Source: Candidatus Nanosynbacter lyticus (GTDB lineage Bacteria > Patescibacteriota > Saccharimonadia > Saccharimonadales > Saccharimonadaceae). From it: DNA of 32,000 nt. Positions 2,861-32,000 of this stretch are shown in pieces (within the stretch, counting starts at the first letter, position 1; every line of letters starts with the position of its first letter). The notes beneath the pieces were generated by a model, which saw only the letters and a list, made by a program, of their open reading frames with translations, was not told the DNA's origin and did not search any database. Position numbers and translations under genes: made by a program. Where the stretch lies: positions 630,001 through 662,000 of the forward strand of contig NZ_CP007496.1 of NCBI RefSeq assembly GCF_000803625.1, in the 5' to 3' direction.

Positions 2861-2863
2861 GTG

Positions 2864-12032: not shown

Positions 12033-12062
12033 TTGGACAAAAGTATCAGCTGGACGTATACT
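12033..12062 (+). promoter_or_regulatory. Candidate sigma70-type promoter for tRNA-Pro
   Basis: TTGGAC (12033-12038), an 18-nt spacer, then TATACT (12057-12062). The tRNA 5' end lies 11 nt further downstream. Confidence 0.35.
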
Positions 12063-12073
12063 GTTTTTAGCGT

Positions 12074-12150: not shown

Positions 12151-12218
12151 TGGAAATTATTTGAAGCGCACGTTCACTAACTAGAACCTCTGGCTATAAG
12201 CAAAATAAAGGAGGTTTT

Positions 12219-12686: not shown

Positions 12687-12700
12687 CGAGGTCACTCGGG

Positions 12701-13423
12701 CTATTTGGCGAAGAATTTTTTAGCGCGCTCGGTTTTCGGATGATCCATTACCTGGGCTGGCGTACCGTTTTCGATTATTTCGCCCTTGTCCAGAAAAATC
12801 ATCCGCGTGCCGACCTCGCGGGCAAATTTCATCTCGTGCGTCACGATCACCATCGTCATGCCTTTTTCAGCAACTTTGCGAATCACATCCAGAACTTCGC
12901 CAATCATTTCTGGATCCAGCGCTGAAGTTGGCTCGTCAAACAGCATAATTTTTGGCTCCATCGCCAGTGCTCGAGCGATGGCTACCCGCTGTTTTTGGCC
13001 GCCCGATAAACTACTTGGCAAAGCATCTGCCTTATCGAGCAGCCCGACATCATCCAGCAAACTTCGCGCTAATTTTGTAGATTTTTGATCAGAAAACTTA
13101 CGTAGTTTTTTAGGTGCTAATTTAATATTCTCAATCACGCTCAGATTCGGGAATAAATTAAATTGCTGAAAAACCATACCGATAGTTTGGCGCAAAGCAT
13201 TCAAATTGACATGCCGATCGGTAATCTTAACACCATCAACAACAATTTCGCCGGATGTCGGCTCTTCCAGTAGATTCAAGCAGCGTAAAAACGTCGACTT
13301 GCCGGAGCCGCTGGAGCCAACCACCACGACAATTTCACCCTCGTCAATTTCCACGTCAATATCGCGCAGCACGCGGTTGGTACCAAATGTTTTCTTCAAA
13401 TTCTTAACGCTGATTATCGTCAT
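12701..13423 (-). CDS. Polar amino-acid ABC transporter, ATP-binding protein (GlnQ/HisP-like)
   Basis: 240 aa. Walker A is GSSGSGKST, the signature is LSGGQKQR, and Walker B is [11 protein letters not shown]. Confidence 0.9.
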
Positions 13424-14114
13424 GCTTCAACTTCCTTTCTACTCGTGCCATTACTCGTGTAAAAATCGCCGTCAAAATTAAATACATTGCCGCAGCAGCA
13501 AATAACGATTGAAAAGCTGTCGCTGTCTGGAAGCGAATATTGTCAGCGCCACGCATAATATCATTCAAGCCAATCCAGCCAACCACCGACGTTTCCTTTA
13601 ATAAAGCAATAAATTCGCTAATCAATGCTGGTAACGAATTTCTCATCGCTTGCGGTAAAATAACCAGCCGCATAGCTTGCCAATTGCTCAGACCCAGCGA
13701 CCGCGCTGCCTCCATTTGCCCCTTATCAATACTCTGGATACCACCACGAATAATCTCAGCAATGTACGCACCGCTGTTAATACCGAACGCCACCGCTGCC
13801 ACAAAAATCTTCGGCATAAATTGATACGAGCCAAACACCACGTAATACATAATTAACAATTGCACTAACAATGGCGTGCCGCGAATAATATCAACGTAAA
13901 GTTTCCCCAAGCCAGCCAGTGGATTAAATTTGGCAAGCTTCCCCGATTTCATCCTGCCAAATGGATGAAAATTCGACGTACACATCAGGGCGATAATTAT
14001 GCCAATTATTGAACCCAAAATAAGCGCTAAAACGGTTAAAACCAACGTTACTTCCAGACCGTGCCATAAAAACAACCAACGATCACCACCAAAAATTACC
14101 TCCCAAAAGTTCAC
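13404..14114 (-). CDS. Polar amino-acid ABC transporter permease (HisM/GlnP-like)
   Basis: 236 aa, with about 5 TM helices and an EAA-type loop ([22 protein letters not shown]). The GTG start overlaps the stop of the binding-protein gene (GTGA). Confidence 0.9.
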
Positions 14115-14902
14115 GACTTTACCTCCTCGCCAAAATATTTGCGAATTAATTTGTCGTAACGGCCGTCTTGTTTCATCTTAACAATTTCTTTATTAACCTT
14201 CTCTAGCAAATCCGTATTGTCTTTTTTAATGGCAATGGCATAGCTTTCGTTGCTAAGCGCGCCCGGCAAAATTTCCAAATCAGGAAAACCAGCCGTGTAC
14301 TGCTTGGCGGGAGCATCGTCCAGAATGACCGCCTCGATTTTCCCAGCACTTAGCTCCTGCAAAACGCTAGGCGCAGTCTGAAATTGAGTAACCGAGGCGC
14401 CAGCAATTTTTGATGCCAATGTGTCGCCAGTCGTACCCAGCTGCACACCTATTTTCCGCCCCGAAAGCTGATGCTTATTACGAATCGGACTACCCTTCTT
14501 AACAATTATGCGCTGCGACGCCGAATAATACGGCTCGGAAAATAATGCGTTTTTCGCCCGCTCCGGCGTTACCGTCATACCTGCTGCCACCATGTCAATT
14601 TGCCCACTGTCTAACGCCGGCAATAGCCCGTCAAATGACATGTCTTCAATTTTCAACTCTTTGCCCATACTTTTGGCAATTTCCCGCGCCAAATCAACAT
14701 CAAAGCCAACAATTTCATTATTATCAATATACTCAAACGGCTTAAAGCCAGCATTCGTCCCCATCACCAGCACATCAGTTTTCGAGCCAATCACGCCGTC
14801 GCGCTGCAAAATATCGCCCAGCATCAAGCAGATCATTCCAGCAAATAAAGCCAGTCCAATCCACCAACTAATCCCAAATGTACGCGCTTTATTCTTGCTC
14901 AT
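14111..14902 (-). CDS. Amino-acid ABC transporter substrate-binding protein (PBP type 3)
   Basis: It has an N-terminal signal/anchor helix, then KPFEYIDNNEIVGFDVDLAREIAK, typical of polar amino-acid binding proteins. I prefer the start at ATG 14902 (MSKNKART...): TATAAT sits 6 nt upstream, and the longer ORF would overlap the divergent gene. Confidence 0.85.
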   Translation of the reverse strand: MSKNKARTFGISWWIGLALFAGMICLMLGDILQRDGVIGSKTDVLVMGTNAGFKPFEYIDNNEIVGFDVDLAREIAKSMGKELKIEDMSFDGLLPALDSGQIDMVAAGMTVTPERAKNALFSEPYYSASQRIIVKKGSPIRNKHQLSGRKIGVQLGTTGDTLASKIAGASVTQFQTAPSVLQELSAGKIEAVILDDAPAKQYTAGFPDLEILPGALSNESYAIAIKKDNTDLLEKVNKEIVKMKQDGRYDKLIRKYFGEEVKS

Positions 14903-14908
14903 GCTTTT

Positions 14909-14914
14909 ATTATA
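14909..14914 (-). promoter_or_regulatory. -10 box 6 nt upstream of the binding-protein ATG; probable leaderless promoter
   Basis: The minus strand reads AAGGGTTATAATAAAAGCATG. Confidence 0.45.
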
Positions 14915-14942
14915 ACCCTTTCTCCCTAAAAAACGTAAGTGA

Positions 14943-14948
14943 TATAAT
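14943..14948 (+). promoter_or_regulatory. -10 box 6 nt upstream of the GTG start of the LtaS-like gene; probable leaderless promoter
   Basis: The plus strand reads GATATAATGTAGCAGTG. It is divergent from the box at 14909-14914, which lies 28 bp away. Confidence 0.45.
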
Positions 14949-14954
14949 GTAGCA

Positions 14955-16520
14955 GTGAAAAGAATTAAATTTACCAAGCGCTTCTGGGCGAAATTGATAT
15001 CAATTACCTTACTCTTTTTGGCAGCATTCTTCTTAATTGCGGCACGTTATAAATCGGTTGTCTTTAAAGACTCGCAGATTGATGAGATAATTTTCTATTT
15101 TGTCAACGGACTAGCCGGCGGTAAATCTGACAATTTATGGTCGGCCGTCCTGCAAAACCTACCCCTAGTTTTCTTACTATTCGGCATACTTCTCATCCCA
15201 GTTTCAAAAAAAACCGTTACCTACCTTAATCATGGAATTACATTTTGCCTTGATAAAATTAAATCATCAAGAAAAATCATCCTGCCATTTTTGAGATTAA
15301 AATACGCTTTAATTTATTCACTAACTATGTTTTTAATCTCACTCACACTACTCATTCAAAGCTTCGGTATTCCTGGCTATATTTACGCTCTAACTCAATC
15401 AACCAAACTATACGAAGAAAATTATGTTAACCCAAAAACCGCCAAATTAACCTTTCCTGATGAAAAACGCAATTTGATATATATCTATCTGGAATCGATG
15501 GAAAACACCCTAGCCTCAAAAGCCAATGGCGGCAGCGCTGACGTCTCTGTTATTCCGGAGCTAGAAGAATTGGCTCTGAAAAATACCTCATTTTCAAATA
15601 AGGCTTCTGGTCTAGGCGGTGCCTTACCAGCAACAAACACTGGCTGGACTGTCGCGGGCATGGCCGCCCAATCAGCTGGCGTTCCTCTAAAAGAAACTTT
15701 AGTTGGCGGACGCGACCATAACTCGCTAGGTGAGTTTAAGAAGTTTCTGCCGGGCGCCTATAGCCTAGGCGAAATCCTCCAAAAACAAGGTTATAATCAA
15801 ACATTTATCATGGGATCTGAGGCAAGTTTCGGCGGACGCGATAAACTACTCACACAACACGGTAATTTTACTATTCAGGATTATAATTACGCCAAACAGC
15901 ATGGTCAAATTACTGGCGATTATAAAGTTTGGTGGGGTTATGAGGATAAAAAATTATTCCAGTTTGCCCGCGAAGAAGCCTCACGTCTGGCTTCGTCAGA
16001 CAAGCCCTTTAATTTACAGCTGCTGACTGCTGACACGCATTTTACCGACGGCTATCTGGACGAAAATTGTGCTAAAAATTTTAATAATCAATACGATAAC
16101 GTCCACGCCTGCTCGTCCAAACAAGTGGCAGAATTCGTCAAATGGGTACAGTCTCAGCCTTTTTATAAAAATACTACAATTATAATTTCTGGCGACCACT
16201 TGGGTATGCAAACATCGTACTACGACGAAAAAACCGCCGGCACCAATTATCAGCGAACAATTTATAATGCGTTTATCAATCCAGCTACAACCACTGATCG
16301 TACAAGAAACCGCCGCTTTACGACCTTTGACATGTACCCATCAACCTTGGCGGCACTGGGTGTAAAAGTTGACGGCGAACGATTGGGACTGGGCACAAAT
16401 TTATTCTCTATTAAAGAAACTCTGGCCGAGCAATACGGTGGAATTGAAAATCTGAACGCCGAGCTCGCCAAACGTTCAGATTATTACGAAAAGAAGATTT
16501 TTACCAAATCTGGCAATTAA
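14955..16520 (+). CDS. LTA synthase / sulfatase (alkaline-phosphatase superfamily) membrane enzyme, LtaS/MdoB-like
   Basis: 521 aa. N-terminal TM helices are followed by an extracytoplasmic domain with YIYLESMEN, TADTHF and SGDHLG motifs typical of LtaS-family phosphoglycerol transferases. Confidence 0.8.
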   Translation: MKRIKFTKRFWAKLISITLLFLAAFFLIAARYKSVVFKDSQIDEIIFYFVNGLAGGKSDNLWSAVLQNLPLVFLLFGILLIPVSKKTVTYLNHGITFCLDKIKSSRKIILPFLRLKYALIYSLTMFLISLTLLIQSFGIPGYIYALTQSTKLYEENYVNPKTAKLTFPDEKRNLIYIYLESMENTLASKANGGSADVSVIPELEELALKNTSFSNKASGLGGALPATNTGWTVAGMAAQSAGVPLKETLVGGRDHNSLGEFKKFLPGAYSLGEILQKQGYNQTFIMGSEASFGGRDKLLTQHGNFTIQDYNYAKQHGQITGDYKVWWGYEDKKLFQFAREEASRLASSDKPFNLQLLTADTHFTDGYLDENCAKNFNNQYDNVHACSSKQVAEFVKWVQSQPFYKNTTIIISGDHLGMQTSYYDEKTAGTNYQRTIYNAFINPATTTDRTRNRRFTTFDMYPSTLAALGVKVDGERLGLGTNLFSIKETLAEQYGGIENLNAELAKRSDYYEKKIFTKSGN

Positions 16521-19877: not shown

Positions 19878-20480
19878 ATGGATCAACTCCACTACAAGCA
19901 GGAACAGATTAAATCAGCGTCTTTTGGGATTAGCAGATTACTTCTTATACCCCAATATTTCCTACTAGCAGCTGTTACTTCGCTGATCTTTGCGCTAGTA
20001 ATTTTCTTTGCTATTAACGCTAATTTTTACGGACCGCTCATGATGTCGCAACTACCGTTTTTAGATAAAATAGCCTTGCTAGGTGATATGCTATCCGACA
20101 TCTTCACGCAGGGTTTTACTTCAATAAACGGTGCCTTACTAATCGTCGTTTCAGTCCTTCAAGGAATATCAATTGCTGCTGTAATTTTTACAGCAAAAAA
20201 GAATAAAGTTGAGGAAAAAACCGTTACCCGCCAAGTCGGACTCAGCGGCATTGCGTCAGTTGCTGCCGCAATCGGTCTGGGCTGCGTCCCCTGTGGCACG
20301 TCCATTATTCTGCCAATTATTGCAATATTTTTTTCGGGAGCCGCCGCAGCTACCGCCGCCAATATTGCTAGTACGATAGTTTTGACATTAGCTCTTTTGT
20401 TGAGCGTATTCTCATTATATAAATCTGGAAAAATTGTTTTTATGTACACAGAATTAGCTAAACAGGAGAAAGAGTCATGA
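19878..20480 (+). CDS. Polytopic membrane protein with a single intramembrane CxxC (GLGCVPCGTS); unknown family
   Basis: About 200 aa from MDQLHYKQEQ, with 4-5 hydrophobic helices. Its only two cysteines form CVPC inside a helix. Its stop overlaps the start of the DsbA-like gene (ATGA). Confidence 0.6.
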   Translation: MDQLHYKQEQIKSASFGISRLLLIPQYFLLAAVTSLIFALVIFFAINANFYGPLMMSQLPFLDKIALLGDMLSDIFTQGFTSINGALLIVVSVLQGISIAAVIFTAKKNKVEEKTVTRQVGLSGIASVAAAIGLGCVPCGTSIILPIIAIFFSGAAAATAANIASTIVLTLALLLSVFSLYKSGKIVFMYTELAKQEKES

Positions 20481-21193
20481 ATCATCAACAAGAACGTGGG
20501 ATTGCCCCAATTTGGATAATCTTATCAATTATCGTAGCAGGAATAGTTGCGCTATTTATCTATGGCGTTATTAATCGCCCACCAAATCGCCATATTGGCG
20601 ACGGTAAAGCGTGGAATGAAAAAATGTCACAAGGCTCTGCTGACGCGAAGAACGTATTTGTCGACTACACTGACTATTTCTGCTCATTCTGCGCTGAAGT
20701 TGAAGCAGCCACCAACGCCGATTTCTTCAAAAATGAGTACGTTAAATCAGGCAAGGTTCGCTATGAACACCGCGTAGTTACCCTCTTAAAGGAAGTTACT
20801 AACAATACAGAAACTGGCGCTCACGCAGCATTTTGTGCCGCCGACCAGGACAAATATTGGCAATATACGCACGACATCGTGCCGCGCATTAAGCGTGATT
20901 ATTTTGACAAAGGAATCGGCGTGAAAAACGTTGCTGTGCCACAAAAAATTCCAACATTACCACTAGAATACTTCCTTACTTCTGCTAAGAATATTGGCTT
21001 AGATGAGAGTAAATTCTCTGACTGCATGACTAAAAAGCCGCACCAAAAAGAGATTGATGACAATACCCAAAAAGCTCTTTCTCTTGGCGTAAGCGGCTTG
21101 CCTTACATGGTTATCAATGACTATCAAACCAGCGGTTTTGGTGGCGGCGAGAATGGATTAAGGGCAATTTTGAAGGCTGGCGGTGTTAAATAA
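20477..21193 (+). CDS. DsbA-family thiol:disulfide oxidoreductase (Thioredoxin_4-like), membrane-anchored
   Basis: 238 aa. It has an N-terminal TM anchor and a DYTDYFCSFCAE CxxC active site in the usual DsbA position. An AGGAGAAAGAG SD lies upstream. Confidence 0.8.
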   Translation: MNHQQERGIAPIWIILSIIVAGIVALFIYGVINRPPNRHIGDGKAWNEKMSQGSADAKNVFVDYTDYFCSFCAEVEAATNADFFKNEYVKSGKVRYEHRVVTLLKEVTNNTETGAHAAFCAADQDKYWQYTHDIVPRIKRDYFDKGIGVKNVAVPQKIPTLPLEYFLTSAKNIGLDESKFSDCMTKKPHQKEIDDNTQKALSLGVSGLPYMVINDYQTSGFGGGENGLRAILKAGGVK

Positions 21194-21199
21194 TTAGCA

Positions 21200-21790
21200 C
21201 TATTTCAGTTGACTCATAAATCCACGTAGTTGAGATAAGGCCCGCTCTATTCTCTCATTCGTCCAGTATTTATCCGGCGTAATATTATCGTCGCCAGTTG
21301 ATTCTTCCTTGTAGCGACCGATGATTTTACCGTTCTTGATAATCGATACATCAGGCACAAATATTCGAGGATTGCCATTTTTATCTTTTTCCAAATACGG
21401 TTCTAATTTCTTGACCAGCTTCTGATAGACTTCACTGTTGTTGGTGCGGGCTTCACGAATATTCAAATAATATATCTTATCAATACCTTCAGCCCGAGCT
21501 GCCCGATCAACGTGTTCGCTCAAATGCTGGCACCACGGACATTACGGAAAACCCAAGAATACCACGCCGCTGCCGTTATCAAAGATATCGAGAACTTCTT
21601 TGTCGCTAGCATAAACAAAGCGATTATCTGACGCTACTCGCGGATATTCTGACTTGAATCTGGCGGCATCGGAGATGTTCGACGTTGGAGTTTTTGGCTG
21701 TTCACTACTACGTTTGTTATACCATAGTCCAAATATAGCCCCAACCAAAATGATTATCCCAAGAATAATCGCAACGACTTTTTTGTTCAT
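21200..21790 (-). pseudogene. Membrane-anchored thioredoxin-like protein interrupted by an in-frame TAA immediately before its CPWC active site
   Basis: The two track ORFs (21542-21823 and 21200-21523) share one frame. The minus strand reads ...GVVFLGFP-TAA-CPWCQHLSEHVDRAA..., with the stop at 21542-21544. A strong SD (AAAAAGGAGGG) lies 5 nt upstream of ATG 21790 (MNKKVVAIILG...). Confidence 0.6.
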
Positions 21791-21841
21791 ATCCGCCCTC
21801 CTTTTTGTAGCATTATTTTCCAAAGATAGAAGATATTAAAA

Positions 21842-22960
21842 TTACTCCCACCTAAAAAGCTTAATTGCGGCAATGTAAATAACGACAATCCAAACAGCAA
21901 TAGTACCGATTTGCGGCAAAACATCAACCAAGCCAGCGTGCTCAGTCATAACCAAACGAAACCCTTCAGTAATTGGCGTCATTGGAATAAAATTAGTTGC
22001 ACCCCGAAGCCATTCCGGGAATAAGTAAATCGGGAAAAACGCACCAGACAAGAACATCATCGGAAAGGAGATTAGATTGCTCAGCGGTGCTGATTGATTT
22101 TCATTCTTCGCCCAACCGCCGATCAACAGGCCCAGACCCACCATCATAAAGGCCGCCAGCACCGCCATAAGGACAAATATCCCCCAGTCGCCGCGCATAT
22201 TAAACTGGAACAATAGCATACCGACAACAATCATCATCGTCAAACTGAGCAGCGAAATAATCGTGTAGTGAATCGCCATAGAAATAATCAGCTGGCCCGA
22301 GGTAAACGGCGCCGCACGCAGACGGCGGTACGAGCCGCGCTGCTTTTCAGCCGGCATTTGGTTCGCCAAACCGAAGATGCCCATGCTCATCAAGCTAAAC
22401 GCCAGCAGCCCGGTAAAGGTATAATCAAACGACTTCAGCTGCTCGTCGCCAACAGCTTTGCCAGCGGCTTTCAGCGGCGCTTCTGGCTGGCCCATGTGCA
22501 TATTAATTTTATTGGCAATCTGGTTCATCACTGCTGTTAAGGCGCTACCAGTTTGCTCGGAACCTTTGGCGTATAGCACGTTAATTGTACCAGTCGGGCG
22601 AGCATCTCTGCCTTCTCCCTTTACTTTGCCAAAATCGCTAGGCAGTTCAATGATGCCGTTCAGTTCCGAACGCTTCATCTTCTCACGCGCCTCATCCATA
22701 TCCTTGACGTCTTTAATTTTAAGAATCGAGTCTTTGGCGTTATCTTTGGCGCCTTTAACGAAGCTTTTGGCAAATTCCGTCTGCGAATTATTGATAATCG
22801 CGATGTCAAAGCTGGTCGATTGATTATTAAAAATCGAACCGAACACCAACAAGAAGATAAGCGGAAACAGGAAGGTAAAGAACAGCGACATTTTATCGCG
22901 GATGAAGCGTTTTTGTTGGGCGCGCACTTGCCCAAATACACCAGTCCAATATTTTTTCAT
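21842..22960 (-). CDS. ABC-2 type transporter permease
   Basis: 372 aa. It has one N-terminal TM helix, a large extracytoplasmic loop, and a C-terminal bundle of 5 TM helices, which is the typical ABC-2 / YhhJ-like architecture. It lies directly downstream of its ATPase. Confidence 0.85.
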   Translation of the reverse strand: MKKYWTGVFGQVRAQQKRFIRDKMSLFFTFLFPLIFLLVFGSIFNNQSTSFDIAIINNSQTEFAKSFVKGAKDNAKDSILKIKDVKDMDEAREKMKRSELNGIIELPSDFGKVKGEGRDARPTGTINVLYAKGSEQTGSALTAVMNQIANKINMHMGQPEAPLKAAGKAVGDEQLKSFDYTFTGLLAFSLMSMGIFGLANQMPAEKQRGSYRRLRAAPFTSGQLIISMAIHYTIISLLSLTMMIVVGMLLFQFNMRGDWGIFVLMAVLAAFMMVGLGLLIGGWAKNENQSAPLSNLISFPMMFLSGAFFPIYLFPEWLRGATNFIPMTPITEGFRLVMTEHAGLVDVLPQIGTIAVWIVVIYIAAIKLFRWE

Positions 22961-22961
22961 A

Positions 22962-23726
22962 CTAATCCCGAATCGCCTTTCCTGTTAAGTCAATAAATAC
23001 ATCCTCCAAATTGGCCTGCTCGACAACTTGCTTTTTCTTGAAGCCGCGCGCCAGTAGTTGCTGGATCAGATTATGCGGCGTATCAATGGTGATGATTTTA
23101 CCGTTGTCCATAATCGCCAAGCGGTCGCACAGCAGTTCGGCCTCGTCCATGTAATGAGTTGTCAGCACAATAGTGATACCTTCATCGCGAATCTCTTTGA
23201 TTAAATCCCAGAGATTACGACGAGCCTGCGGATCCAGACCAGTGGTCGGCTCATCGAGAAATAGGACCGTCGGGTTGTTAACCAGCGTCGACGCGATGGC
23301 GAAGCGTTGCTTTTGTCCGCCCGAGAGCTGCTCGACGTAGCTTTTGGCTTTGTCGGTCAATTGCACCTTGGCCAGCAGCGCGTCGGCGTCGACCGTTTGT
23401 CCGTACAGACTAGCAAACATTTTTAATTGTTCGCGCAAGGTTAGTTTGTCGTAAAACGTTGTCGATTGCAGCTGGATACCTATGATATTCTTGATATGTC
23501 TCGGCGCGCTGGCAACATCAATTCCGTCGATAGTCACTGTGCCACCATCAATCGTTCTTAAAGCCTCCAGCATCTCTAGCGTCGTCGTCTTACCAGCGCC
23601 GTTGGGGCCGAGAATACCAAAAATCTCGCCTTTCTTGACCTCAAATGATATACCATCAACTACATTCTTGCCATCATAAGTTTTAACAAGTTGGTCAACC
23701 GTTATGATAGGCTTAAGATTCGCCAT
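22962..23726 (-). CDS. ABC transporter ATP-binding protein (DrrA/CcmA-like, partner of the ABC-2 permease)
   Basis: Walker A is GPNGAGKTT, the signature is LSGGQKQR, and Walker B is LFLDEPTTGLD. I prefer the start at ATG 23726 (MANLKPIITVDQL...) with AAGGAAAGGAA upstream. The track's 44-aa extension has no homology signal and overlaps the divergent gene. Confidence 0.9.
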   Translation of the reverse strand: MANLKPIITVDQLVKTYDGKNVVDGISFEVKKGEIFGILGPNGAGKTTTLEMLEALRTIDGGTVTIDGIDVASAPRHIKNIIGIQLQSTTFYDKLTLREQLKMFASLYGQTVDADALLAKVQLTDKAKSYVEQLSGGQKQRFAIASTLVNNPTVLFLDEPTTGLDPQARRNLWDLIKEIRDEGITIVLTTHYMDEAELLCDRLAIMDNGKIITIDTPHNLIQQLLARGFKKKQVVEQANLEDVFIDLTGKAIRD

Positions 23727-23821
23727 TATTAAATTCCTTTCCTTATAGCAGTTTAAGTAATTTTGCCAACTAACCTTGCTATAGTTAATTGTAACAAAAC
23801 TAATGCTATACTTAATATAGT

Positions 23822-25243
23822 ATGAGAATTCACAGAAAAAAAGAAAAAGCTCAATCAAAAAAAATATTCATCATACTTACTCTAGTAACTACACTTATAG
23901 TAACTATTTCTGGTGGAATATATTACCTTAGCCAATCACATTCACAAAAAATAACCGCCCCAACTGATGAAAAATATTATTTCACCGATTCGCGCTATTC
24001 TGGAGTTCGCTCAAAATTCGTGACCAGAAATAATAAACGAGAAAAGGTGTCGATTGAATACCCAATTACTGAAAATAAAAAAATCAACCACACCGTTGCT
24101 GAGGCGATTGATAAAATTGATCGTGATTTTCGCAGCACGGTCCTTTTATCTACAGCATTTGACCAGCCAATGACAGAGACTATCAGCTACCAAGTCATGC
24201 ATAATAATTCGGTAGCTCTGTCGATTATCACTAATATCAAGCAAGATATGCACGGCGCGCATCCGGTGTCGTTGACGCATTTTTGGACTTTTAATAAAAA
24301 ATCTGGCGAGATTATTAGCCTGAACGATTTGACCGATCAATCAAATGAGGCTATCGAAGCAATTATAAAATCCGCCAAAGATAATATTGCGGAGACAATT
24401 AAGAAGCGCGATAAACCAGAACTTGATCTTAATGGAATAATCACCAAAGAGACTCTATCTAATTTTGTTATTACTGACAATGGCAATAGTCTGGCTTGGC
24501 CACTTGGCCAGGCATCGCTACTACCGTCATCTTATGGCGAGATGACCATCACTGTGCCAATTTCTTCAGTCAGCAAATACCTACAAAATCCAACAGCTCG
24601 GAAACTAGCCAATATTCCCAAGCCACCCGAGCCAAAGCCAGAACCAGCGCCAGTACCCGCTGCGCCAACACCTGCACCAACCACTGGCAATAAAGTGATT
24701 GCCTTGACGTTTGATGATGGACCAGGTCCATACACCGCGCACCTACTGGACATCTTGGATCAGTATGGTGCGAAAGCGACATTTTTCTTGATTGGTAGCA
24801 AAGTTTCTGGGCAATCTAGCGTCGTACGCAGCATACAGGCGCGTGGTCATCAACTGGGTAATCACTCGTGGTCACATCCAGAACTACCTAAGCTATCGGT
24901 TGACCAAATTGCTGGCGAAATTGACCGTACTAACGAGGCCATCAGACAAGCCACTGGCGTCAAGCCGAGCATCTTGCGCCCGCCTTATGGTGCTGTCAAT
25001 GGTGTTGTCCTGGAACAGCTTCGCCTGCACGGTATGTCATCAATCTTGTGGTCGGTCGACACGCGGGATTGGGCTGATCGCAATAGCCAGATTGTCTGTT
25101 CACGTGCCGTCGCTGGCGCTCGTCCTGGAGCCGTCATCTTGATGCACGACATCCACCAAACTTCCGTCAATGCCGTGCCGTGCATCCTAAGCTCACTGAA
25201 GCAGCAGGGATATTCGTTCGTGACGATACAGCGACTACATTAG
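23822..25243 (+). CDS. Membrane-anchored polysaccharide/peptidoglycan deacetylase, PdaC-like (TM, DUF3298/RsiV-like domain, Pro-rich linker, NodB domain)
   Basis: 473 aa. The NodB motifs are ALTFDDGPGPYT and GNHSWSHP. The linker is PKPPEPKPEPAPVPAAPTPAPT. The N-terminal TM anchor and middle domain are arranged as in B. subtilis PdaC. Confidence 0.85.
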   Translation: MRIHRKKEKAQSKKIFIILTLVTTLIVTISGGIYYLSQSHSQKITAPTDEKYYFTDSRYSGVRSKFVTRNNKREKVSIEYPITENKKINHTVAEAIDKIDRDFRSTVLLSTAFDQPMTETISYQVMHNNSVALSIITNIKQDMHGAHPVSLTHFWTFNKKSGEIISLNDLTDQSNEAIEAIIKSAKDNIAETIKKRDKPELDLNGIITKETLSNFVITDNGNSLAWPLGQASLLPSSYGEMTITVPISSVSKYLQNPTARKLANIPKPPEPKPEPAPVPAAPTPAPTTGNKVIALTFDDGPGPYTAHLLDILDQYGAKATFFLIGSKVSGQSSVVRSIQARGHQLGNHSWSHPELPKLSVDQIAGEIDRTNEAIRQATGVKPSILRPPYGAVNGVVLEQLRLHGMSSILWSVDTRDWADRNSQIVCSRAVAGARPGAVILMHDIHQTSVNAVPCILSSLKQQGYSFVTIQRLH

Positions 25244-25470
25244 TCCACCTGATCAATCTCAAATATCTTGTATTTCGAAGATGGGCCGTGCAGCAATTTT
25301 ACCTTTGAGGGTGCCACGCCGAGATGTTTTGCTAGTAGTTTCGCCGCCGCTAGATTCGCTCGCCCTTCAATGGCTGGCGCCTTGGTGTAGATTGTCAGCG
25401 AACCATCATCGTTCGGGACGACTTCTTCGCGGTGGCGAGAGTTGGGTTTGAGATGGACGGAGATTTTCAT
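25240..25470 (-). CDS. DUF167 (YggU/UPF0235) family protein
   Basis: The sequence is MKISVHLKPNSRHREEVV...IYTKAPAIEGRANLAAAKLLAKHLGVAPSKVKLLHGPSSKYKIFEI. The KP...G.AN pattern is typical of YggU. The start at 25470 avoids overlap with hsdR. Confidence 0.75.
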   Translation of the reverse strand: MKISVHLKPNSRHREEVVPNDDGSLTIYTKAPAIEGRANLAAAKLLAKHLGVAPSKVKLLHGPSSKYKIFEIDQVD

Positions 25471-25480
25471 GATTATTTTA

Positions 25481-28400
25481 TCAATCCAGCAAACTCGCTC
25501 CGCCGCCAGCGTCATACGCTGCGCGTTTTTGGCTCCATTCGTTACTATAACGTTTGGCTTGTTCTAATACCATGTCAGTTGCCAACGCCTGCTGATCTGG
25601 CGGGTAGCCATATTTTGCCAGCGTCTTTTTGACGTTAACTTTCAGTTTTGCCTGAACATTCCTGCGCTCTGCCCAGTCAATCGTCGCATCACGACGCACC
25701 TGCTCTAACAATACTTTTGCGATATCACGTAGCTGTGCGTCACCCAGTACTTCACGAGCACTGCCATTTTCAACCAGCGCATCGTAAAAGATAATCTCAT
25801 CCTCGCTGAGGCCATCAACCACTCCGTTCTCAACAGTCTGGCGAATTTTCTGTCCAATGTTGATTAATTCCTCAATCACCTGCGCTGCCTCAATCGTGCC
25901 ATTTCTATACCGTGTCAAGGCTTGATCGAGCAAGTCAGAGAACTTGGTATCCTTGGCATAATTTCTCGAAAATCGTAGTTTAATTTCATCAGCCAGCAGT
26001 TTTTGCAAAGCCTCCACCGCCAAATTCTTGCGCTCCATGTTACGAATTTCCGCCAAAAACTCATCACTCAAAATTGACAGTTCCGGCTTTTCTAATCCTG
26101 CCGCCTCAAACACATCAACCACACCAACTGGCGCAATTGCTTTATCGACAATTTGTTTCAGCGCACTGCGATACTCAGCGTCAGTCACCACTGCCGAGCT
26201 GGACACTTTCTCCAGCCGAGCTTTCACCGCCTGGAACAGTGCCACTTCTTCGCGAATTTCCAGCGCCTCAGGCCTCGGCATCGCCAATGCAAATGCTTTA
26301 CTCAGTTCCAAAACATGCTGCTTCAACCGCTTCTCACCGTCTTCCAACCCTAAAATATATTCCTCGGCATCCAAAATAATTTGCAGTTGCTGGCTAGTTG
26401 GTGTGGTAAAATATCGCTGATAGTCAAAGTTACCAAACAAATCGCGCACCACTTCATAGCGCATCTGCATCTGTGCCACCGCCTCAGTAATATCAAGCTG
26501 CGGTGCGCCTTGACCACCACTTTGCGTATAGTCAGAAATAGCATCGCGCAGCGCCCCCGCTACACCCAGATAGTCAACCACCAAACCGCCAGTTTTTCCA
26601 GGGAACACTCGATTTACCCTGGCAATCGCTTGCATCAAATTATGCCCTTTGAGCGGTTTATCTAGATACATGGTGTGCATATTTGGCACATCAAATCCCG
26701 TCAGCCACATGTCGCACACAATCACCAATTCAAGCGGGTCATTTGGATCTTTGATACGCTTTTCGATTGCCTTTACTCGCTGTTTGTTACGAATGTGCGG
26801 TTGCAGGTAGTCGGGGTCGCTAGCACTACCGGTAATAATCACCTTTATCGCGCCGCGCGCGTCATCGTCACTGTGCCAATCCGGCCGATACGCCACAATT
26901 TTTTCATACAAATCAACCGCAATACCACGACTCATCGTCACGATCATACCTTTACCACTTAGGACACTTTGCCGGGTCTCAAAGTGCTCAATGATATCCA
27001 AAGCGATAGTATTCAGCCGCTCGCTATTACCGACAATGGCTTCTTTTTGTGCATACTCGGCCTTCAACGCATCCTGATGGCTCAGTTCTTCGCCCTCCAG
27101 CAAATCATCAACTTCCTTATCCAGCCACTGCCGCGTTGCCTCATCCATATTCAAATCAACCAGCCGGCTCTCATAATAAATCGGCACCGTTGCACCATCT
27201 TTCACCGCCTGCTCGACATCATAAATATCGATATAGTCGCCAAACACTACTGGCGTTGACTTATCGTCCGTTTCAATCGGCGTGCCCGTAAAGCCAATGT
27301 AGCTCGCACCCGGCAAGGCATCGCGCATATACTTGGCGTAACCATACACCAGCTGAGCATCACTAGCTCGGACATGCGCCTTCAAGCCATATTGACTGCG
27401 GTGCGCCTCATCTGCCATCACGATGACATTGCGTCGATCAGTCAGGACTGGCAAGCTATCCTCCTCGTCCTCGGGCGAGAACTTCTGGATTGTCGTAAAG
27501 ATAATTCCACCCGCCTGGCGCTGCAACAGTTTCCTCAGCTCACTGCGTGAATCGGCCTGCTTCGGGTCTTCTCCTAATAGCTCGCGACAGGCGCTAAACG
27601 TGCCAAATAACTGACCATCAAGATCATTACGATCCGTCACCACCACGATGGTTGGGTTATGCAAATCGCGCGATTTCATCAGTTTGCCAGTATAAAACAC
27701 CATACTCAAGCTCTTGCCCGACCCTTGCGTATGCCAAACCACACCAGCCCGCTGGTCGCCACGTTCACTACTGGCCGTTAATGTTCGATCAAGTGCCTTA
27801 TTCACTACCCAATATTGATGATAAGCGGCAACTTTTTTGATCAATTTATCGCCATCACCTCGCTCAAATACGATAAAATTCTGCACCACATCTAGCAAAC
27901 GTTCGGGCGTACACGCACCACGCAGCAATACCTCCAACATCGGCACATTGCCAGCTTCCTTTTCGCCGTCAATCGTTTTCCACGACATCATTCGCTCCAA
28001 CGGGCTGGTGATCGTGCCCATCTCTGCCTCTAGTCCATCGCTCGTCACGCACAATTCATTAAAGCGGAACAGATCACTAATCTCTCGCTTGTACGTCTGG
28101 ATTTGCTGATACGCTGCCACCAAATCGGCCTTCGTATCAGCCGCATTTTTTAGTTCAATCACCACTAGAGGCAACCCATTTACAAACAGCACGATGTCCG
28201 GCCGGCGATTATGGTCGCCTTGCAGAACCGTCAGCTGATTGACCGCCACAAAATCGTTGCTGTGTGACGAGGTAAAATCAACCACCCGCACAATATCGTG
28301 TTTCACTTCACCACTTGGTGCGCGATACTGTACTGGTACGCCCGCTATCAACAGCTGATGAAAATCATGATTATTCTCAATTAAACTTGGTTTACTAATC

Positions 28401-28615
28401 TGCGTCAACCGCCGCATCGCTTCATTCAAGGCTGGTTCTGGAATGTGCGGATTGAGCCGCGCCAAAGCACTATATAGACGCCCAGGCAATACCACCTGCC
28501 TGAGCTCACGCTCAGCTATAGCACCATCTGGACCAATATCTGGTCCATGCAGAATTTGCCAGCCGAGATTAGCTAGGATATCAAGCGCATATTGTTCGAT
28601 TTGAGATTCGGTCAT
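25481..28615 (-). CDS. hsdR: Type I restriction enzyme, R (restriction/translocase) subunit
   Basis: About 1044 aa from MTESQIEQYALDILANLGW. It has the nuclease motif PDIVLFVNGLPLVVIELK, helicase motif I HTQGSGKSLSM, DEAH box MADEAHRSQ, and a C-terminal helical domain. TATAAT (28625-28630, minus) lies 9 nt upstream of the ATG. Confidence 0.93.
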   Translation of the reverse strand: MTESQIEQYALDILANLGWQILHGPDIGPDGAIAERELRQVVLPGRLYSALARLNPHIPEPALNEAMRRLTQISKPSLIENNHDFHQLLIAGVPVQYRAPSGEVKHDIVRVVDFTSSHSNDFVAVNQLTVLQGDHNRRPDIVLFVNGLPLVVIELKNAADTKADLVAAYQQIQTYKREISDLFRFNELCVTSDGLEAEMGTITSPLERMMSWKTIDGEKEAGNVPMLEVLLRGACTPERLLDVVQNFIVFERGDGDKLIKKVAAYHQYWVVNKALDRTLTASSERGDQRAGVVWHTQGSGKSLSMVFYTGKLMKSRDLHNPTIVVVTDRNDLDGQLFGTFSACRELLGEDPKQADSRSELRKLLQRQAGGIIFTTIQKFSPEDEEDSLPVLTDRRNVIVMADEAHRSQYGLKAHVRASDAQLVYGYAKYMRDALPGASYIGFTGTPIETDDKSTPVVFGDYIDIYDVEQAVKDGATVPIYYESRLVDLNMDEATRQWLDKEVDDLLEGEELSHQDALKAEYAQKEAIVGNSERLNTIALDIIEHFETRQSVLSGKGMIVTMSRGIAVDLYEKIVAYRPDWHSDDDARGAIKVIITGSASDPDYLQPHIRNKQRVKAIEKRIKDPNDPLELVIVCDMWLTGFDVPNMHTMYLDKPLKGHNLMQAIARVNRVFPGKTGGLVVDYLGVAGALRDAISDYTQSGGQGAPQLDITEAVAQMQMRYEVVRDLFGNFDYQRYFTTPTSQQLQIILDAEEYILGLEDGEKRLKQHVLELSKAFALAMPRPEALEIREEVALFQAVKARLEKVSSSAVVTDAEYRSALKQIVDKAIAPVGVVDVFEAAGLEKPELSILSDEFLAEIRNMERKNLAVEALQKLLADEIKLRFSRNYAKDTKFSDLLDQALTRYRNGTIEAAQVIEELINIGQKIRQTVENGVVDGLSEDEIIFYDALVENGSAREVLGDAQLRDIAKVLLEQVRRDATIDWAERRNVQAKLKVNVKKTLAKYGYPPDQQALATDMVLEQAKRYSNEWSQKRAAYDAGGGASLLD

Positions 28616-28624
28616 ACTGCGACA

Positions 28625-28630
28625 ATTATA
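28625..28630 (-). promoter_or_regulatory. -10 box for hsdR (separate promoter; very short or no leader)
   Basis: The minus strand reads GGTGTATAATTGTCGCAGTATG. Confidence 0.4.
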
Positions 28631-28669
28631 CACCAGTTGTCTTGGATCCCAGAATTATAATGTTTGTTG

Positions 28670-28678
28670 TGCTATAAT
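28670..28678 (+). promoter_or_regulatory. Extended -10 (TGCTATAAT) candidate promoter for the plus-strand 270-aa/PIN gene pair
   Basis: The plus strand reads TTGTTGTGCTATAATAG, about 35 nt upstream of ATG 28713 and divergent from the hsdR promoter. Confidence 0.4.
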
Positions 28679-28712
28679 AGATATGTATTAATAAGTGGGT
28701 GGAACAGGTAAG

Positions 28713-29507
28713 ATGAGTAAGGGCGGTCTATATTTTTCGATTGACGATAAGCTAATGGATGAAAAGATTAGCTTAAACAACGTTTCTTTACCGATTTTAA
28801 AAGATTTCATTGAACAAGTATCTATTTTTATTCGTGGTAACGAGTCAGTTGACTTAAATGGAGTCAAAATTGCAATTAAACCTGGTTCGGTCGCAATAGT
28901 TGTAGAAGAAACACCACTAATCAAAACTGCCATTAGTGAATATCGCATCATAAAGTCAAGCGGCGACTTAGGAAAAATTAGTCCCGTTCGTGCAAAGGTC
29001 ATAGCAAATCTCCAAGAAAAAGTAAGGAAAAATCCCAGTAGGCTTTATACAATATCTGATAACATCGACTCTGCGTTTATAGACCAAAATTCAATTAAAA
29101 TATCTTTGGACTCGAGTTATAAGATTGTTCATGCCGATCAGTGGGTCGATACAGAGGCTTATTTGTATGGTAGAGTATTTAACATGGGAGGTAAAAGCAA
29201 GTCTAACGTTCACATTACTTTATCCAATGGCACCAACATAAAACTTGATACTAACGAAGACATTCTTGCCGATGACAATAAGAACCGGCTCTACAAAGAA
29301 CAACTCGTCCGAGTAAAGGCTCAACGAAATCTCCGCACAAAAGAGTTGCGGAACGAACGACTGGTTTCTTTTGAATATTATGAACCCCATTTTAATGAAG
29401 ACGAGTTTATCAAACAAGTCGCCAGAACTAAACTAGCTTGGAAAGATATACCTGACATAGTTAGCTGGGTGGAAGAAGTAAGAGGTAATCATGCTAAGAC
29501 AACCTAG
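28713..29507 (+). CDS. Hypothetical protein (~264 aa), upstream partner of the PIN-domain gene; no family recognised
   Basis: The ORF runs 28695-29507, and I prefer ATG 28713 (MSKGGLYFSIDD...). It is AT-rich. Its last 17 nt overlap the PIN ORF. I could not identify any diagnostic motif. Confidence 0.55.
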   Translation: MSKGGLYFSIDDKLMDEKISLNNVSLPILKDFIEQVSIFIRGNESVDLNGVKIAIKPGSVAIVVEETPLIKTAISEYRIIKSSGDLGKISPVRAKVIANLQEKVRKNPSRLYTISDNIDSAFIDQNSIKISLDSSYKIVHADQWVDTEAYLYGRVFNMGGKSKSNVHITLSNGTNIKLDTNEDILADDNKNRLYKEQLVRVKAQRNLRTKELRNERLVSFEYYEPHFNEDEFIKQVARTKLAWKDIPDIVSWVEEVRGNHAKTT

Positions 29508-29997
29508 ACAATCTGTACTAATAGACACTAGCTTTCTTATTACTCTTTTTGACAACTCGCGCCCTAATCATGAGGTAGCTAAGAAATATTATAAGTATTT
29601 CATTGATAATAATATAGATATGTATCTCTCTGCTATTGTTGCATCAGAGTATGAGTACAAAGACTCAATCGATCCTATACTAGATACTGGCAATTTTATA
29701 CCTCTTCCCTTTAATCTTGATGACTCAAAGCTAGCCGGTAGTTTCGCCAGCAGGCTGCATTCAGAATCTAGAGGCAAGCATACATCGCGAGATTCAGCAA
29801 AGGACGACGTAAAGTTACTTGCTCAATGTTCAAACCACAGTATAGATTTTGTTGCCACCGACGACACCTCGACCATGGCAAAATATTGTCGACGACTCAA
29901 TACTATGGATGAGTCGCGAACAAAAGTAATTACACTAGACTGTTTCGATGTAAGTGATTTTAACGGTGGTCAGACCGAGCTAGATATAAACTTTTAA
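29491..29997 (+). CDS. PIN-domain nuclease (VapC-like)
   Basis: 168 aa. The N-terminal SVLIDTSFLI supplies the first acidic residue, followed by ASEYEY, AKDDVKLLAQC and VATDDTS. This is the D...E...D...D spacing of PIN domains. An AAGAGGT SD lies 5 nt upstream. Confidence 0.6.
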   Translation: MLRQPRQSVLIDTSFLITLFDNSRPNHEVAKKYYKYFIDNNIDMYLSAIVASEYEYKDSIDPILDTGNFIPLPFNLDDSKLAGSFASRLHSESRGKHTSRDSAKDDVKLLAQCSNHSIDFVATDDTSTMAKYCRRLNTMDESRTKVITLDCFDVSDFNGGQTELDINF

Positions 29998-30005
29998 TAA
30001 CTATC

Positions 30006-31559
30006 CTAACTCGGTATATCTCTAAACAAATCAACCTCCTGGCGATCAATAGATATTTTATTCGTCTCCCTGATGCCTTGTAGTATATCGACGTCAACTA
30101 TACTTGTGTCTCTAACTGTTTTCATTATGTCGTCCTTTAGCCAATCAATACACCAGATAATAGAATTATCAATATATGCTCTTTCACTGACTGACCGGGT
30201 TAATAATTCATTAAATTGCAAGTCCGGATCAATAGAGTAAGATACTCGCTGCAACCAAATATCTAATAAGCCAGTGTTAGGTATAATCTTGAACTTATCA
30301 AGAATTTTTTGAACAAGGAGTCCCCTCCTTGACTCACCCGCCCCACGGATAGTTAGACTCGCAACCGCCATCGCCATATTGTAGTATTTAGGGTTTTTAA
30401 TTGCCATATTAACTACAATACTCAGCATAACTTCTGGTTTTTCATAATGACGTAAGCTTTTTCCTTGATCTAAGTAATCAAGAAGTTCCTCGTGAAACAT
30501 ATTTAGCTGGCGAGACACCATACCTGAATTAGGATATTTATAACTAGCTGCATAAATCTGCATTAACCATTTTGCAAAATTATCTTTTTCTTTCTTTATA
30601 TTCGGTATAAATAATTCTTCGATCTTATCCTTTTTAATAGAACTCAAGACTATATCGCTGCTCTTTTTGGTCTTCTGTGCATTTAATCTAAGACCAAGTA
30701 TTGCTAAAATTTCAGTTAACTCTTTCAGTATACGAGCTCCTAGATCTAGCCTATTGGTAAAAATTCGATAGTCATCCCTGTAGCGAACAATGGAATATTC
30801 TCTTTTATCAATATCTTTTATAGCTTGAGCTAAAAGATTATCAGCATATGCAAAGATAAGCTCAGCAATAAAATCAGAAAGAGTGTTTCCCTGAGGTATC
30901 CCATTTGTTTGTCGATGATTCATCATCTGAAAATGCTCATCAATTTTACCTCCCAAAGATTTTTTATCACGGTTAGCATAAGCCTCGTCTTTACCATGAA
31001 GAGCCCATGAAATAGAATGCGTATATATTGATCCATAACAGTTTGCAACATCAGTTTCTAAGACATATCGAAACTCAAGACCTTTAGCCGCACAGTTTTG
31101 CTCAAATTTCTCCCACCAAGCACGTATTTGCTCCGCTTTCGCGCTTTTCTTTTTTGAGGGTTGCACTGGAATACTAGCAACTTCAATATTACAACCCCTC
31201 CTTAACTCAGAAAATCGCTTTTTTATAACACTCCAATTATCCTCTTTAGTGATATAATGCACTAACCCTACATAAAGAACCGGATTTATTATCTCAAATG
31301 GCCTCCAGGCTAGTTCACCGTCTTTGTTGCCGTAAATCACTTTATTTACATCATGTCTATCTCGTGGGTCTTTCTTCTTACGGCCACCATCCTCTGGATC
31401 AAAAAAATAATTAACATCATAACCGCCCATCTTACTTGACACAGCTTGAAGTATTGGATCAAAGTTAAAATATTCAGGCAAATCAAAGTTTACATAACTT
31501 TTACCGTCCAGCAAAAAAGCACGAGCTTGCTTATGATCAAGTTCTAATATATTAGCCAT
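30006..31559 (-). CDS. Reverse transcriptase, UG/Abi (AbiA/AbiK/Abi-P2/DRT)-like, with a C-terminal alpha-helical domain
   Basis: 517 aa. RT motif A is YVLETDVANCYGSI (D170). Motif B is NGIPQGNTLSDFIAEL. Motif C is IVRYRDDYRIF, with YRDD at nt 30771-30782. Motif D/E is LGLRLNAQKT. The ~200-aa helical tail has no endonuclease or maturase motifs. Its ATG overlaps the hsdS stop (TAATG). Confidence 0.8.
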   Translation of the reverse strand: MANILELDHKQARAFLLDGKSYVNFDLPEYFNFDPILQAVSSKMGGYDVNYFFDPEDGGRKKKDPRDRHDVNKVIYGNKDGELAWRPFEIINPVLYVGLVHYITKEDNWSVIKKRFSELRRGCNIEVASIPVQPSKKKSAKAEQIRAWWEKFEQNCAAKGLEFRYVLETDVANCYGSIYTHSISWALHGKDEAYANRDKKSLGGKIDEHFQMMNHRQTNGIPQGNTLSDFIAELIFAYADNLLAQAIKDIDKREYSIVRYRDDYRIFTNRLDLGARILKELTEILAILGLRLNAQKTKKSSDIVLSSIKKDKIEELFIPNIKKEKDNFAKWLMQIYAASYKYPNSGMVSRQLNMFHEELLDYLDQGKSLRHYEKPEVMLSIVVNMAIKNPKYYNMAMAVASLTIRGAGESRRGLLVQKILDKFKIIPNTGLLDIWLQRVSYSIDPDLQFNELLTRSVSERAYIDNSIIWCIDWLKDDIMKTVRDTSIVDVDILQGIRETNKISIDRQEVDLFRDIPS

Positions 31560-32000
31560 TATATCTTAATCTCTCCGGAAATTAATTTTGGTAAAAGCAA
31601 ATCACGAATTTTGGACAAATAATCTATTTGCTTCTTGTTTTCATGTATCATATCAAACAATGGTCGCACCATCTGCTCGAAATCATCAAACTCGCAATCT
31701 GATAAATCAACAATTTCCAAAAGCTCTATGTGCTTTGGATAAATATGCGGCTGACCAGAGCCAGTTTGCATATCGTATATCTCTTTTTGCTTGTTCTTGA
31801 GGAATAAATAGTAGGTATAAACATATTTGGTAATTGTTGAGTCAATGTACGAAGAGTCTGCCGACCATACTGGTTCACCCCAAACAGACACAAAACCAGC
31901 ATTTGCTCCGGATGCACTTATCGTGATAACTGGCGCGGTCGTATTTGCTTCATTGTGAAATCCGGCTGGCTTCAGTCCACCGCTAATAACCGGTGTGTCA
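31559..32000 (-). CDS. hsdS: Type I restriction-modification specificity subunit; N-terminal part lies beyond the window
   Basis: The frame is open from base 32000: DTPVISGGLKPAGFHNEANTTAPVITISASGANAGFVSVWGEPVWSADSSY... This is typical of a target-recognition domain. It ends with the conserved HsdS tail QIDYLSKIRDLLLPKLISGEIKI. The track shows only the part after an internal GTG. Confidence 0.85.
   Translation of the reverse strand, partial: DTPVISGGLKPAGFHNEANTTAPVITISASGANAGFVSVWGEPVWSADSSYIDSTITKYVYTYYLFLKNKQKEIYDMQTGSGQPHIYPKHIELLEIVDLSDCEFDDFEQMVRPLFDMIHENKKQIDYLSKIRDLLLPKLISGEIKI

Follow-up and report, generated by a model that had tools for sequence, protein, structure and literature searches.

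The closest described relative of the gene analyzed here is Abi-P2, the reverse transcriptase (RT)-like polymerase of P2-like prophages of E. coli (ORF570 of P2-EC30; crystal structure 7R08). Purified Abi-P2 is free of nucleic acid, yet it synthesizes DNA without a template; it forms a trimer with hexamer potential, and its DNA polymerization is abolished by the substitution Y61F and not by Y46F (Figiel et al., PMC9508834). The arginine of its YRDD motif is specific to the Abi-P2 group (PMC2602772), and AbiP2 is listed as a stand-alone system (Mestre et al., PMC9226505). Other class 1 UG/Abi RTs with a C-terminal helical domain, namely AbiK from Lactococcus, DRT4 (UG15) and DRT6 (UG12), are hexamers that perform protein-primed, template-independent synthesis of single-stranded DNA (ssDNA). 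The present analysis concerns an RT-like gene at positions 30006-31559 of a 32,000-nt stretch of the genome of Candidatus Nanosynbacter lyticus (hereafter, the window), where it lies within a type I restriction-modification (R-M) operon. Based on its sequence and predicted structure, the gene is an intact member of the known Abi-P2 family, and it very probably encodes a functional polymerase that would be primed by Tyr30, work without a template, be expressed by read-through as cargo of the operon and serve as an abortive-infection backup to restriction. A protein 100% identical to its product is annotated as TM7x_03560 in Ca. Nanosynbacter lyticus, and matching DNA was found in Ca. Minimicrobia vallesae and in Saccharibacteria metagenome-assembled genomes.

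Family assignment, predicted fold and key residues

The gene and the main features of its product are the following:

30006..31559, minus strand: Abi-P2-family RT-like DNA polymerase gene, 517 aa plus stop, identified by its open reading frame (ORF), the AbiP2 profile, 7R08, AlphaFold/Foldseek and the ratio of nonsynonymous to synonymous substitutions (dN/dS)
31470..31472, minus strand: codon of Y30, the tyrosine predicted to act as primer and to carry the 5' end of the DNA (alignment with Tyr61 of Abi-P2)
31050..31052, minus strand: codon of the catalytic aspartate of motif A, D170 (counterpart of D192 in 7R08; 81/81 homologs)
30888..30899, minus strand: motif B IPQG, residues 221-224 (P222, Q223 and G224 in 81/81)
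30771..30782, minus strand: motif C YRDD, residues 260-263 (paired with Y282-R-D-D285 in the alignment to 7R08)
30669..30692, minus strand: LRLNAQKT, residues 290-297, a conserved palm motif after motif C (K296 and T297 in 81/81)
30033..30578, minus strand: predicted all-helical C-terminal domain, approximately residues 328-509, counterpart of the helical (alpha-repeat) lobe of Abi-P2 (AlphaFold model, superposition on 7R08)

A preliminary description of this DNA, made from the letters alone, had proposed an RT gene at 30006-31559; the ORF is real, begins with ATG and lies on the minus strand, which had been left unstated, and all the motifs cited there are where they had been placed (D170 within DVANCY, window 31035-31052). 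The same description had likened the protein to class 1 UG/Abi RTs of the AbiK/Abi-P2 type and had suggested a comparison with published RT profiles. In that comparison the PADLOC profile AbiP2 matched with an E value of 4e-171 over practically the full length (residues 1-513, aligned to profile positions 4-484 of 489), and the runner-up was UG14 (3e-51); the UG14, Drt6, Drt4, Drt3b and AbiK profiles were all at least 10^120-fold weaker. The crystal structure of Abi-P2 was also the best sequence match among solved structures (PDB 7R08, E 6e-72, query residues 2-493); 35% of the 474 aligned residues were identical. Sequence similarity to AbiK, DRT4 and DRT6 was alignable in the palm alone (E 1e-8 to 1e-17), and the NCBIfam profiles for Drt2-5, retrons and group II RTs/maturases matched the palm region only, far under their cut-offs. 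Pfam detected RVT_1 alone (residues 145-301) and no maturase or endonuclease domain, in agreement with the preliminary description.

The predicted structure led to the same family. An AlphaFold model of the monomer, built on 32 homologs, was confident (pLDDT 87.9, pTM 0.89) and consisted of an alpha/beta RT lobe followed by helices from approximately residue 328 to 509 (328-341, 346-364, 375-388, 390-406, 409-424, 430-440, 476-484 and 490-498 by DSSP), so that the C-terminal ~200 aa, anticipated from the sequence to be all-helical, are predicted to be so. When the model was compared with the PDB by Foldseek, a check also suggested beforehand, the six chains of 7R08 ranked first (template modeling (TM) scores 0.81-0.88; 0.83/0.88 for the top hit), and the whole-chain superposition took in the C-terminal helical lobe. 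The next matches were DRT4/UG15, DRT6, AbiK and AbiA, other template-independent, protein-priming polymerases; AbiK, DRT4 and DRT6 reached TM scores of 0.55-0.63, with differing helical domains and the priming tyrosine in another local context. Group II intron, retron, diversity-generating retroelement (DGR), DRT2, DRT9, telomerase and long interspersed nuclear element (LINE) RTs gave TM scores of only ~0.3. Palm motifs A-E are common to our protein and the retron, group II, DGR and DRT2/DRT9 enzymes, and the similarity in fold to these is confined to palm and fingers. As in Abi-P2, the protein is thus predicted to have a bilobal fold, RT-like plus helical, that lacks a thumb, a maturase and an endonuclease domain.

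Residue conservation was evaluated on an alignment of 81 non-redundant homologs. Y30, D170, D262 and D263 were invariant (81/81), and the arginine of YRDD, the one specific to the family, was present in 79. The HMMER alignment pairs Tyr61 of E. coli Abi-P2 (LPAYINF) with Y30 (LPEYFNF), which preserves the position of the priming tyrosine in an LP-x-Y-x-NF motif, and the dispensable Tyr46 with F15. By homology with Tyr61, Y30 would be the primer of the enzyme. The preliminary description had speculated that the N-terminal region, considered Tyr-rich, might hold a priming residue, and had singled out two segments: SYVNFDLPEYFNF, which corresponds to residues 21-33, and GGYDVNYFF, residues 45-53. 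The first of these contains the motif DLPEYFNF and with it Y30, in good accordance with that speculation. The region is not enriched in tyrosine, with 7 in 160 residues (4.4%), Y30 among them, against 24 in 517 (4.6%) for the whole protein.

Comparison with 97%-identical orthologs yielded dN/dS values of 0.07-0.12, indicating that the gene is maintained by purifying selection. It could instead be a decaying passenger without function, as the genome is very small, the gene is foreign and of low GC content, and the copy in the genome of Ca. Minimicrobia vallesae (L009) has a frameshifted RT (10001-11553). The breaks in that genome could be assembly errors or decay; they occur also in hsdR and in a neighboring gene for a 264-aa protein, suggesting assembly errors. 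Given the unbroken ORF in the window and in the 22 contigs read, the integrity of all catalytic and priming residues, and the low dN/dS, a decaying passenger is very unlikely.

Search for a template RNA and cassette-like elements

Both ends of the gene abut other genes, as follows:

31557..31561, minus strand: TAATG overlap between the hsdS stop and the RT start, with one base (31559) in common (from the sequence; translational coupling predicted)
29998..30005, no strand: 8-nt spacer separating the RT stop from the convergent stop of a PIN-domain gene (from the sequence)

On the minus strand the hsdS/RT junction reads ...AAGATATAATGGCT, with the TAA stop and the ATG sharing base 31559, as had been noted previously; at the other end, the last bases of the RT and PIN stops are 30006 and 29997, respectively, which leaves the 8-nt gap reported before. 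Intergenic space therefore amounts to -1 nt upstream and 8 nt downstream. With these flanks, and with no Rfam match at E ≤ 1 in 25000-32000, the earlier assertion that there is no room for a template RNA stands. Likewise, no DGR-type pair of template and variable repeats (TR/VR) was found in 20000-32000, where the only matches were chance ones of 31-34 nt at 71-74% identity, so that the reported lack of such a pair also stands.

The classes of RT that use a flanking RNA were evaluated individually. The retron St85 profile scored 31.6 bits (cut-off 235) and no Rfam retron non-coding RNA (ncRNA) was detected; the group II profile TIGR04416 scored 56 bits (cut-off 300) in the palm only, with no intron RNA and no X or endonuclease (En) domain; DGR RT structures gave TM scores of ~0.32, and no TR/VR pair was present; and, for the DRT2/DRT9/DRT10 type, the Drt2 profile scored 24.9 bits (cut-off 390), with neither room nor an Rfam match for an ncRNA. 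Unlike retrons, group II introns, DGRs and DRT2/DRT9, the locus thus carries no msr/msd, intron domains, TR/VR repeats or upstream ncRNA. The variable neighbors described below, the lack of Rfam matches and the lack of intergenic room are those of a stand-alone gene.

Several UG/Abi RTs need an ncRNA (PMC9226505), and the enzyme might depend, like those of DRT2, DRT9, DRT10 and retrons, on a template hidden in neighboring coding sequence, either the 3' end of hsdS or antisense to PIN. The 3' untranslated region (UTR) of the RT transcript would indeed be antisense to PIN. In a scan of folding-energy z-scores in sliding windows over 28600-32000 on both strands, one outlier was found there, a 150-nt window at 29850-29999 (minus strand) with z = -3.4. 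Refolding of a slightly shifted window reduced the value to -2.2, and 6 of 200 shuffles folded equally well. What is seen at 29850-29999 are local hairpins in the RT 3' UTR, antisense to the 3' end of PIN, which may be a terminator for the convergent transcripts or a product of chance. Moreover, the PIN cassette is missing in 97%-identical orthologs, where hsdR follows directly, which argues against an ncRNA antisense to PIN. In addition to the lack of Rfam matches at the locus, the profile scores far under cut-offs for retrons, Drt2 and group II, and the low similarity in fold to ncRNA-using RTs (TM ~0.3), the reference enzyme of the family, Abi-P2, needs no nucleic acid cofactor (PMC9508834). 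A hidden template RNA is, on this evidence, highly improbable.

The sole conserved structured element found 3' of homologs does not alter this assessment. In one subclade of homologs outside R-M operons, an element of 140-215 nt directly 3' of the RT stop is conserved and forms a long stem, with 10 of 10 stem pairs covarying and no match in Rfam. It was rejected as a template or ncRNA: in the locus L028 (5602-15621), each of 8 co-oriented ORFs, non-RT genes included, is followed by an imperfect hairpin element of ~110-180 nt. Similar elements (~110-200 nt) were found 3' of the RT stop in L021, L023, L024, L027, L039, L042, L062, L067 and L073, and all copies have AAC...GTT end cores and bulged stems, as in integron attC sites. 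From these features, the elements are probable attC-type recombination sites, and the ORF arrays probable integron-like cassettes. No canonical integron integrase (IntI) was detected in the loci examined; the nearest candidate was a Xer-like divergent recombinase upstream in L082, under the integron-integrase cut-off. A home-made attC counter was dropped as non-specific, with 32 of 77 positives in a control inside an ORF.

Operon organization and neighboring genes

The remaining features around the polymerase gene are:

31559..32000, minus strand: 3' part of hsdS, the type I R-M specificity subunit gene, which runs past the window end (full gene in L002, 8892-10001)
25481..28633, minus strand: hsdR, type I restriction subunit (NCBIfam TIGR00348, E 1e-180; likely true start at the ATG at 28615)
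28713..29997, plus strand: two-gene cassette of a 264-aa protein (28713-29507) and a PIN-domain protein (29491-29997) (Pfam PIN; absent from the loci L007 and L008)

Beyond the window end, the operon was read from identical contigs (e.g. L002). Its full order is RadC / hsdM - RhuM - KAP NTPase - hsdS - RT - (PIN and 264-aa genes, opposite strand) - hsdR. The complete HsdS has 369 aa (Pfam Methylase_S 1e-38; PADLOC Specificity_I 1e-88), and the RhuM gene (PADLOC PDC-S05) and the KAP P-loop NTPase gene (PDC-S20) are located between hsdM and hsdS (L002, 7228-8895). In related strains the hsdM-hsdS slot holds other genes, encoding proteins of 324-685 aa, and in L007/L008, which come from two other Saccharibacteria and where HsdS is only 33-34% identical, a different gene occupies it. 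These differing contents suggest an operon with two variable cargo slots. The GC content of the RT gene is 36% and that of all embedded genes 36-42%, in comparison with 48-49% for hsdM and hsdR, indicating that the embedded genes are foreign cargo in the two slots. The polymerase gene is, then, an AT-rich, horizontally acquired piece of cargo at the 3' end of the hsdM-hsdS transcription unit.

The GTG listed as the hsdR start overlaps a perfect TATAAT (window 28615-28633, minus strand) that is conserved in L007/L008. To judge from the sequence, translation more likely begins at a conserved ATG 18 nt downstream (MTESQ...), and hsdR may possess a promoter of its own with a very short leader; with such a promoter, the RT gene would sit at the end of the hsdMS transcription unit.

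Some observations were made on individual copies of the locus. Between L002 and L007, dS was 0.13 for the RT gene (10001-11554) and 0.49 for the adjacent hsdR (12927-16079 and 11563-14712, respectively), and the RT segment may have been exchanged among Saccharibacteria strains more recently than its flank. In the metagenomic contig L001, hsdM (5774-7232) and hsdR (12927-14953) are each split in two ORFs, while the RT gene is intact.

The neighboring PIN protein exceeds the gathering score of Pfam PIN (3e-6) and has no PADLOC match; its gene is overlapped by 17 nt by that of the 264-aa protein, for which no Pfam, PADLOC, NCBIfam or convincing PDB match was obtained. RT, PIN and the 264-aa protein could in principle constitute one multi-gene defense system, given that the pair is adjacent to the RT gene (8 nt), that all three genes have 36-38.5% GC and that all lie within one hsd operon. 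The RT and PIN genes are, however, convergent and not co-oriented, and in L007/L008 the RT is 97% identical without the pair, with hsdR directly next. The absence of the pair beside so similar an RT indicates a separate, later insertion that is no partner of the polymerase. Apart from the window's own, no PIN protein was found downstream of homologs (0/61), and hidden Markov models (HMMs) found the pair next to an RT solely in copies of this locus. The family of the 264-aa/PIN pair comprises ~50 clusters in Saccharibacteria, Coriobacteriia and Actinomycetota; three divergent contexts were sampled, and in two of them the 264-aa protein occurs with a PIN-like partner (171-184 aa) by MmeI-type or type IIG R-M and Mrr genes, that is, beside other R-M systems and without an RT. 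A joint system with the RT thus seems barely plausible, and the pair is a candidate uncharacterized toxin-antitoxin or defense pair.

Elsewhere, the window carries an arginine deiminase cluster (1910-6678, minus strand) with ornithine carbamoyltransferase, a carbamate-kinase-like kinase and a DcuC-type carrier, which fits a Saccharibacterium with little other catabolism; ClpB and ABC exporters are also present and fit an origin in Saccharibacteria.

Homolog contexts, the restriction complex and the proposed role

A single-protein query of the genome collection returned near-identical Saccharibacteria loci only, and a scan of metagenomes with a degenerate pattern yielded at least 570 relatives, of which 80 loci were kept. 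Representatives of every type of genomic context sampled matched AbiP2 at E values of 1e-190 to 1e-209. Upstream neighbors assigned by Pfam were most often Methylase_S (HsdS; 15/54), no other family exceeding 2/54; downstream, HsdR was found in 8 of 61, and no neighbor family was common to more than 28% of homologs. When hsdS was counted by our own iterated HMMs in the loci with at least 1 kb of upstream flank (n = 51), it was the immediate co-oriented upstream gene in 13, and 9 of these 13 junctions had a stop/start overlap of 1 or 4 nt. An hsd gene was present within four genes in 23 of 82 loci. Loci with hsdS-RT junctions were scattered across the RT tree, and the closest non-identical clade (68% identity) again had the order hsdM-x-x-hsdS-RT-x-hsdR. 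As regards the coupling to hsdS put forward in the preliminary description, the overlap at the junction is real; the arrangement is not unusual, hsdS being directly upstream in about one quarter of homologs.

A gene of 626-728 aa is a second recurrent upstream partner of Abi-P2 homologs. In L097 (4124-7542), the RT homolog follows an SLFN-g3/DUF2075-type helicase with a 4-nt overlap, and a MazG-like gene precedes the helicase; L096 (3392-7560) has the same genes, but with RadC between helicase and RT. Several homologs, L097, L017, L025 and L066 among them, join such an upstream gene of 626-728 aa by gaps of 0-8 nt or by overlaps. Other homologs are found in mixed defense islands, and still others in arrays of co-oriented short ORFs.

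The picture that emerges is one of Abi-P2 genes as modular, promoterless single-gene cargo that has repeatedly landed in the S-R slot of type I operons. This slot is known to hold PrrC, TgvAB and many candidates (Payne et al. preprint for embedded genes), and operon fusion with type I R-M is a defense signature of UG/Abi RTs (Mestre et al., PMC9226505 and preprint). As with PrrC of EcoprrI and other embedded genes (TgvAB, PDC-S05, PDC-S20), the polymerase gene lies between hsdS and hsdR of an otherwise canonical hsd operon, which itself carries RhuM (PDC-S05) and the KAP NTPase (PDC-S20) between hsdM and hsdS. In literature searches on Abi-P2 with type I restriction, on Abi-P2 with ncRNA and on the RT of TM7x, no specific prior description was found.

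For PrrC, an anticodon nuclease, a physical and regulatory link to its R-M complex has been demonstrated; the likeness of our RT to it is one of position. The polymerase could be wired to the type I complex in the same manner, being silenced by HsdM/HsdS until a phage anti-restriction protein incapacitates the complex and it fires; in that case the coupling to hsdS would serve to produce the two proteins in stoichiometric amounts. Besides the common slot between hsdS and hsdR, this idea draws on hsdS as the only recurrent upstream neighbor named in the counts (15/54 by Pfam, 13/51 by HMM), on the overlaps in 9 of 13 junctions, on the presence of the arrangement on many branches of the RT tree and its recurrence in the closest non-identical clade, and on the recognition of genes embedded in type I R-M as a class, in which PrrC is almost exclusively embedded (Payne et al. 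preprint). Abi-P2 homologs, in contrast to PrrC, are mostly outside R-M operons (~70% have no hsd gene nearby), and they are also coupled to unrelated upstream genes (the SLFN-type helicase) or located in integron-like cassette arrays. The E. coli enzyme acts from within a P2 prophage and polymerizes on its own in vitro, and L001 keeps its RT intact while hsdM and hsdR are split. Furthermore, RT identity did not track that of HsdM or HsdR (Spearman rho 0.02 and 0.14, respectively, versus 0.95 for HsdM with HsdR), although with nine complete operons and saturated distances this is weak evidence. A PrrC-like wiring is consequently considered improbable. It is similarly doubtful that hsdS-fused Abi-P2 polymerases form a distinct functional subtype, silenced by the type I methyltransferase/specificity complex and released by anti-restriction attack; if true, it would represent a PrrC-like second line of defense built on DNA synthesis, in an obligate epibiont with a 0.7-Mb genome.

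The reading preferred here is that of an autonomous Abi-P2 polymerase carried as cargo. By homology with the E. coli enzyme, the protein would form a trimer or a dimer of trimers, and the hydroxyl of Tyr30 would serve as primer. The palm aspartates D170, D262 and D263 would polymerize ssDNA of no defined sequence, without an RNA or DNA template, and the C-terminal helical lobe would hold the nascent strand where other RTs hold the template. Synthesis of this kind implies that the gene needs no flanking ncRNA and can be packed between other genes. As there is no space for a promoter of its own, expression of the RT probably depends on read-through from hsdS and on translational coupling to it. 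Its role is most likely an abortive-infection type of phage defense that backs up restriction, as suggested by its embedding in a type I R-M operon alongside the PDC-S05 and PDC-S20 candidates. The nearest mechanistic models would be DRT4 and DRT6, in which a phage factor, a DNA-binding protein, stabilizes the random ssDNA product by shielding it from host exonuclease, and cell death is thought to result from the toxic accumulation of this DNA (PMC12783706).

Three considerations weigh against this interpretation. The DRT4/DRT6 analogy is drawn from relatives more distant than Abi-P2; with just 35% identity to E. coli Abi-P2, product length, oligomeric state and trigger may differ; and the probable co-transcription and translational coupling with hsdS are deduced from gene spacing alone. 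As for the comparison with Abi-P2 itself, the homology is full-length, and both are single-gene, AT-rich, horizontally acquired units. They differ in sequence (65% divergence), in host, a Saccharibacterium with an ultra-small genome and not an enterobacterium, and in location, inside a type I R-M operon and fused to hsdS, not in a prophage hotspot.

In summary, the gene belongs to a known family in a recognized genomic setting, and what is notable is the ultra-small episymbiont host and the frequency of fusion to hsdS. These findings leave knowledge of how the Abi-P2 family works unchanged. They do indicate that Abi-P2 genes travel as promoterless cargo, behind hsdS in about one quarter of the sampled homologs, behind helicase genes and in integron-like arrays, and travel as single-gene cargo is in keeping with an enzyme that works independently of any partner RNA or protein. 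In TM7x and related organisms, a gene annotated as "hypothetical protein / reverse transcriptase" can now be named an Abi-P2-type protein-primed polymerase, with Y30 as predicted primer. At the level of the organism, a host-dependent genome of ~0.7 Mb keeps a restriction operon of ~10 kb with at least three further defense or candidate-defense modules, a defense load that is useful for understanding phage pressure on episymbionts and for attempts at their genetic transformation.

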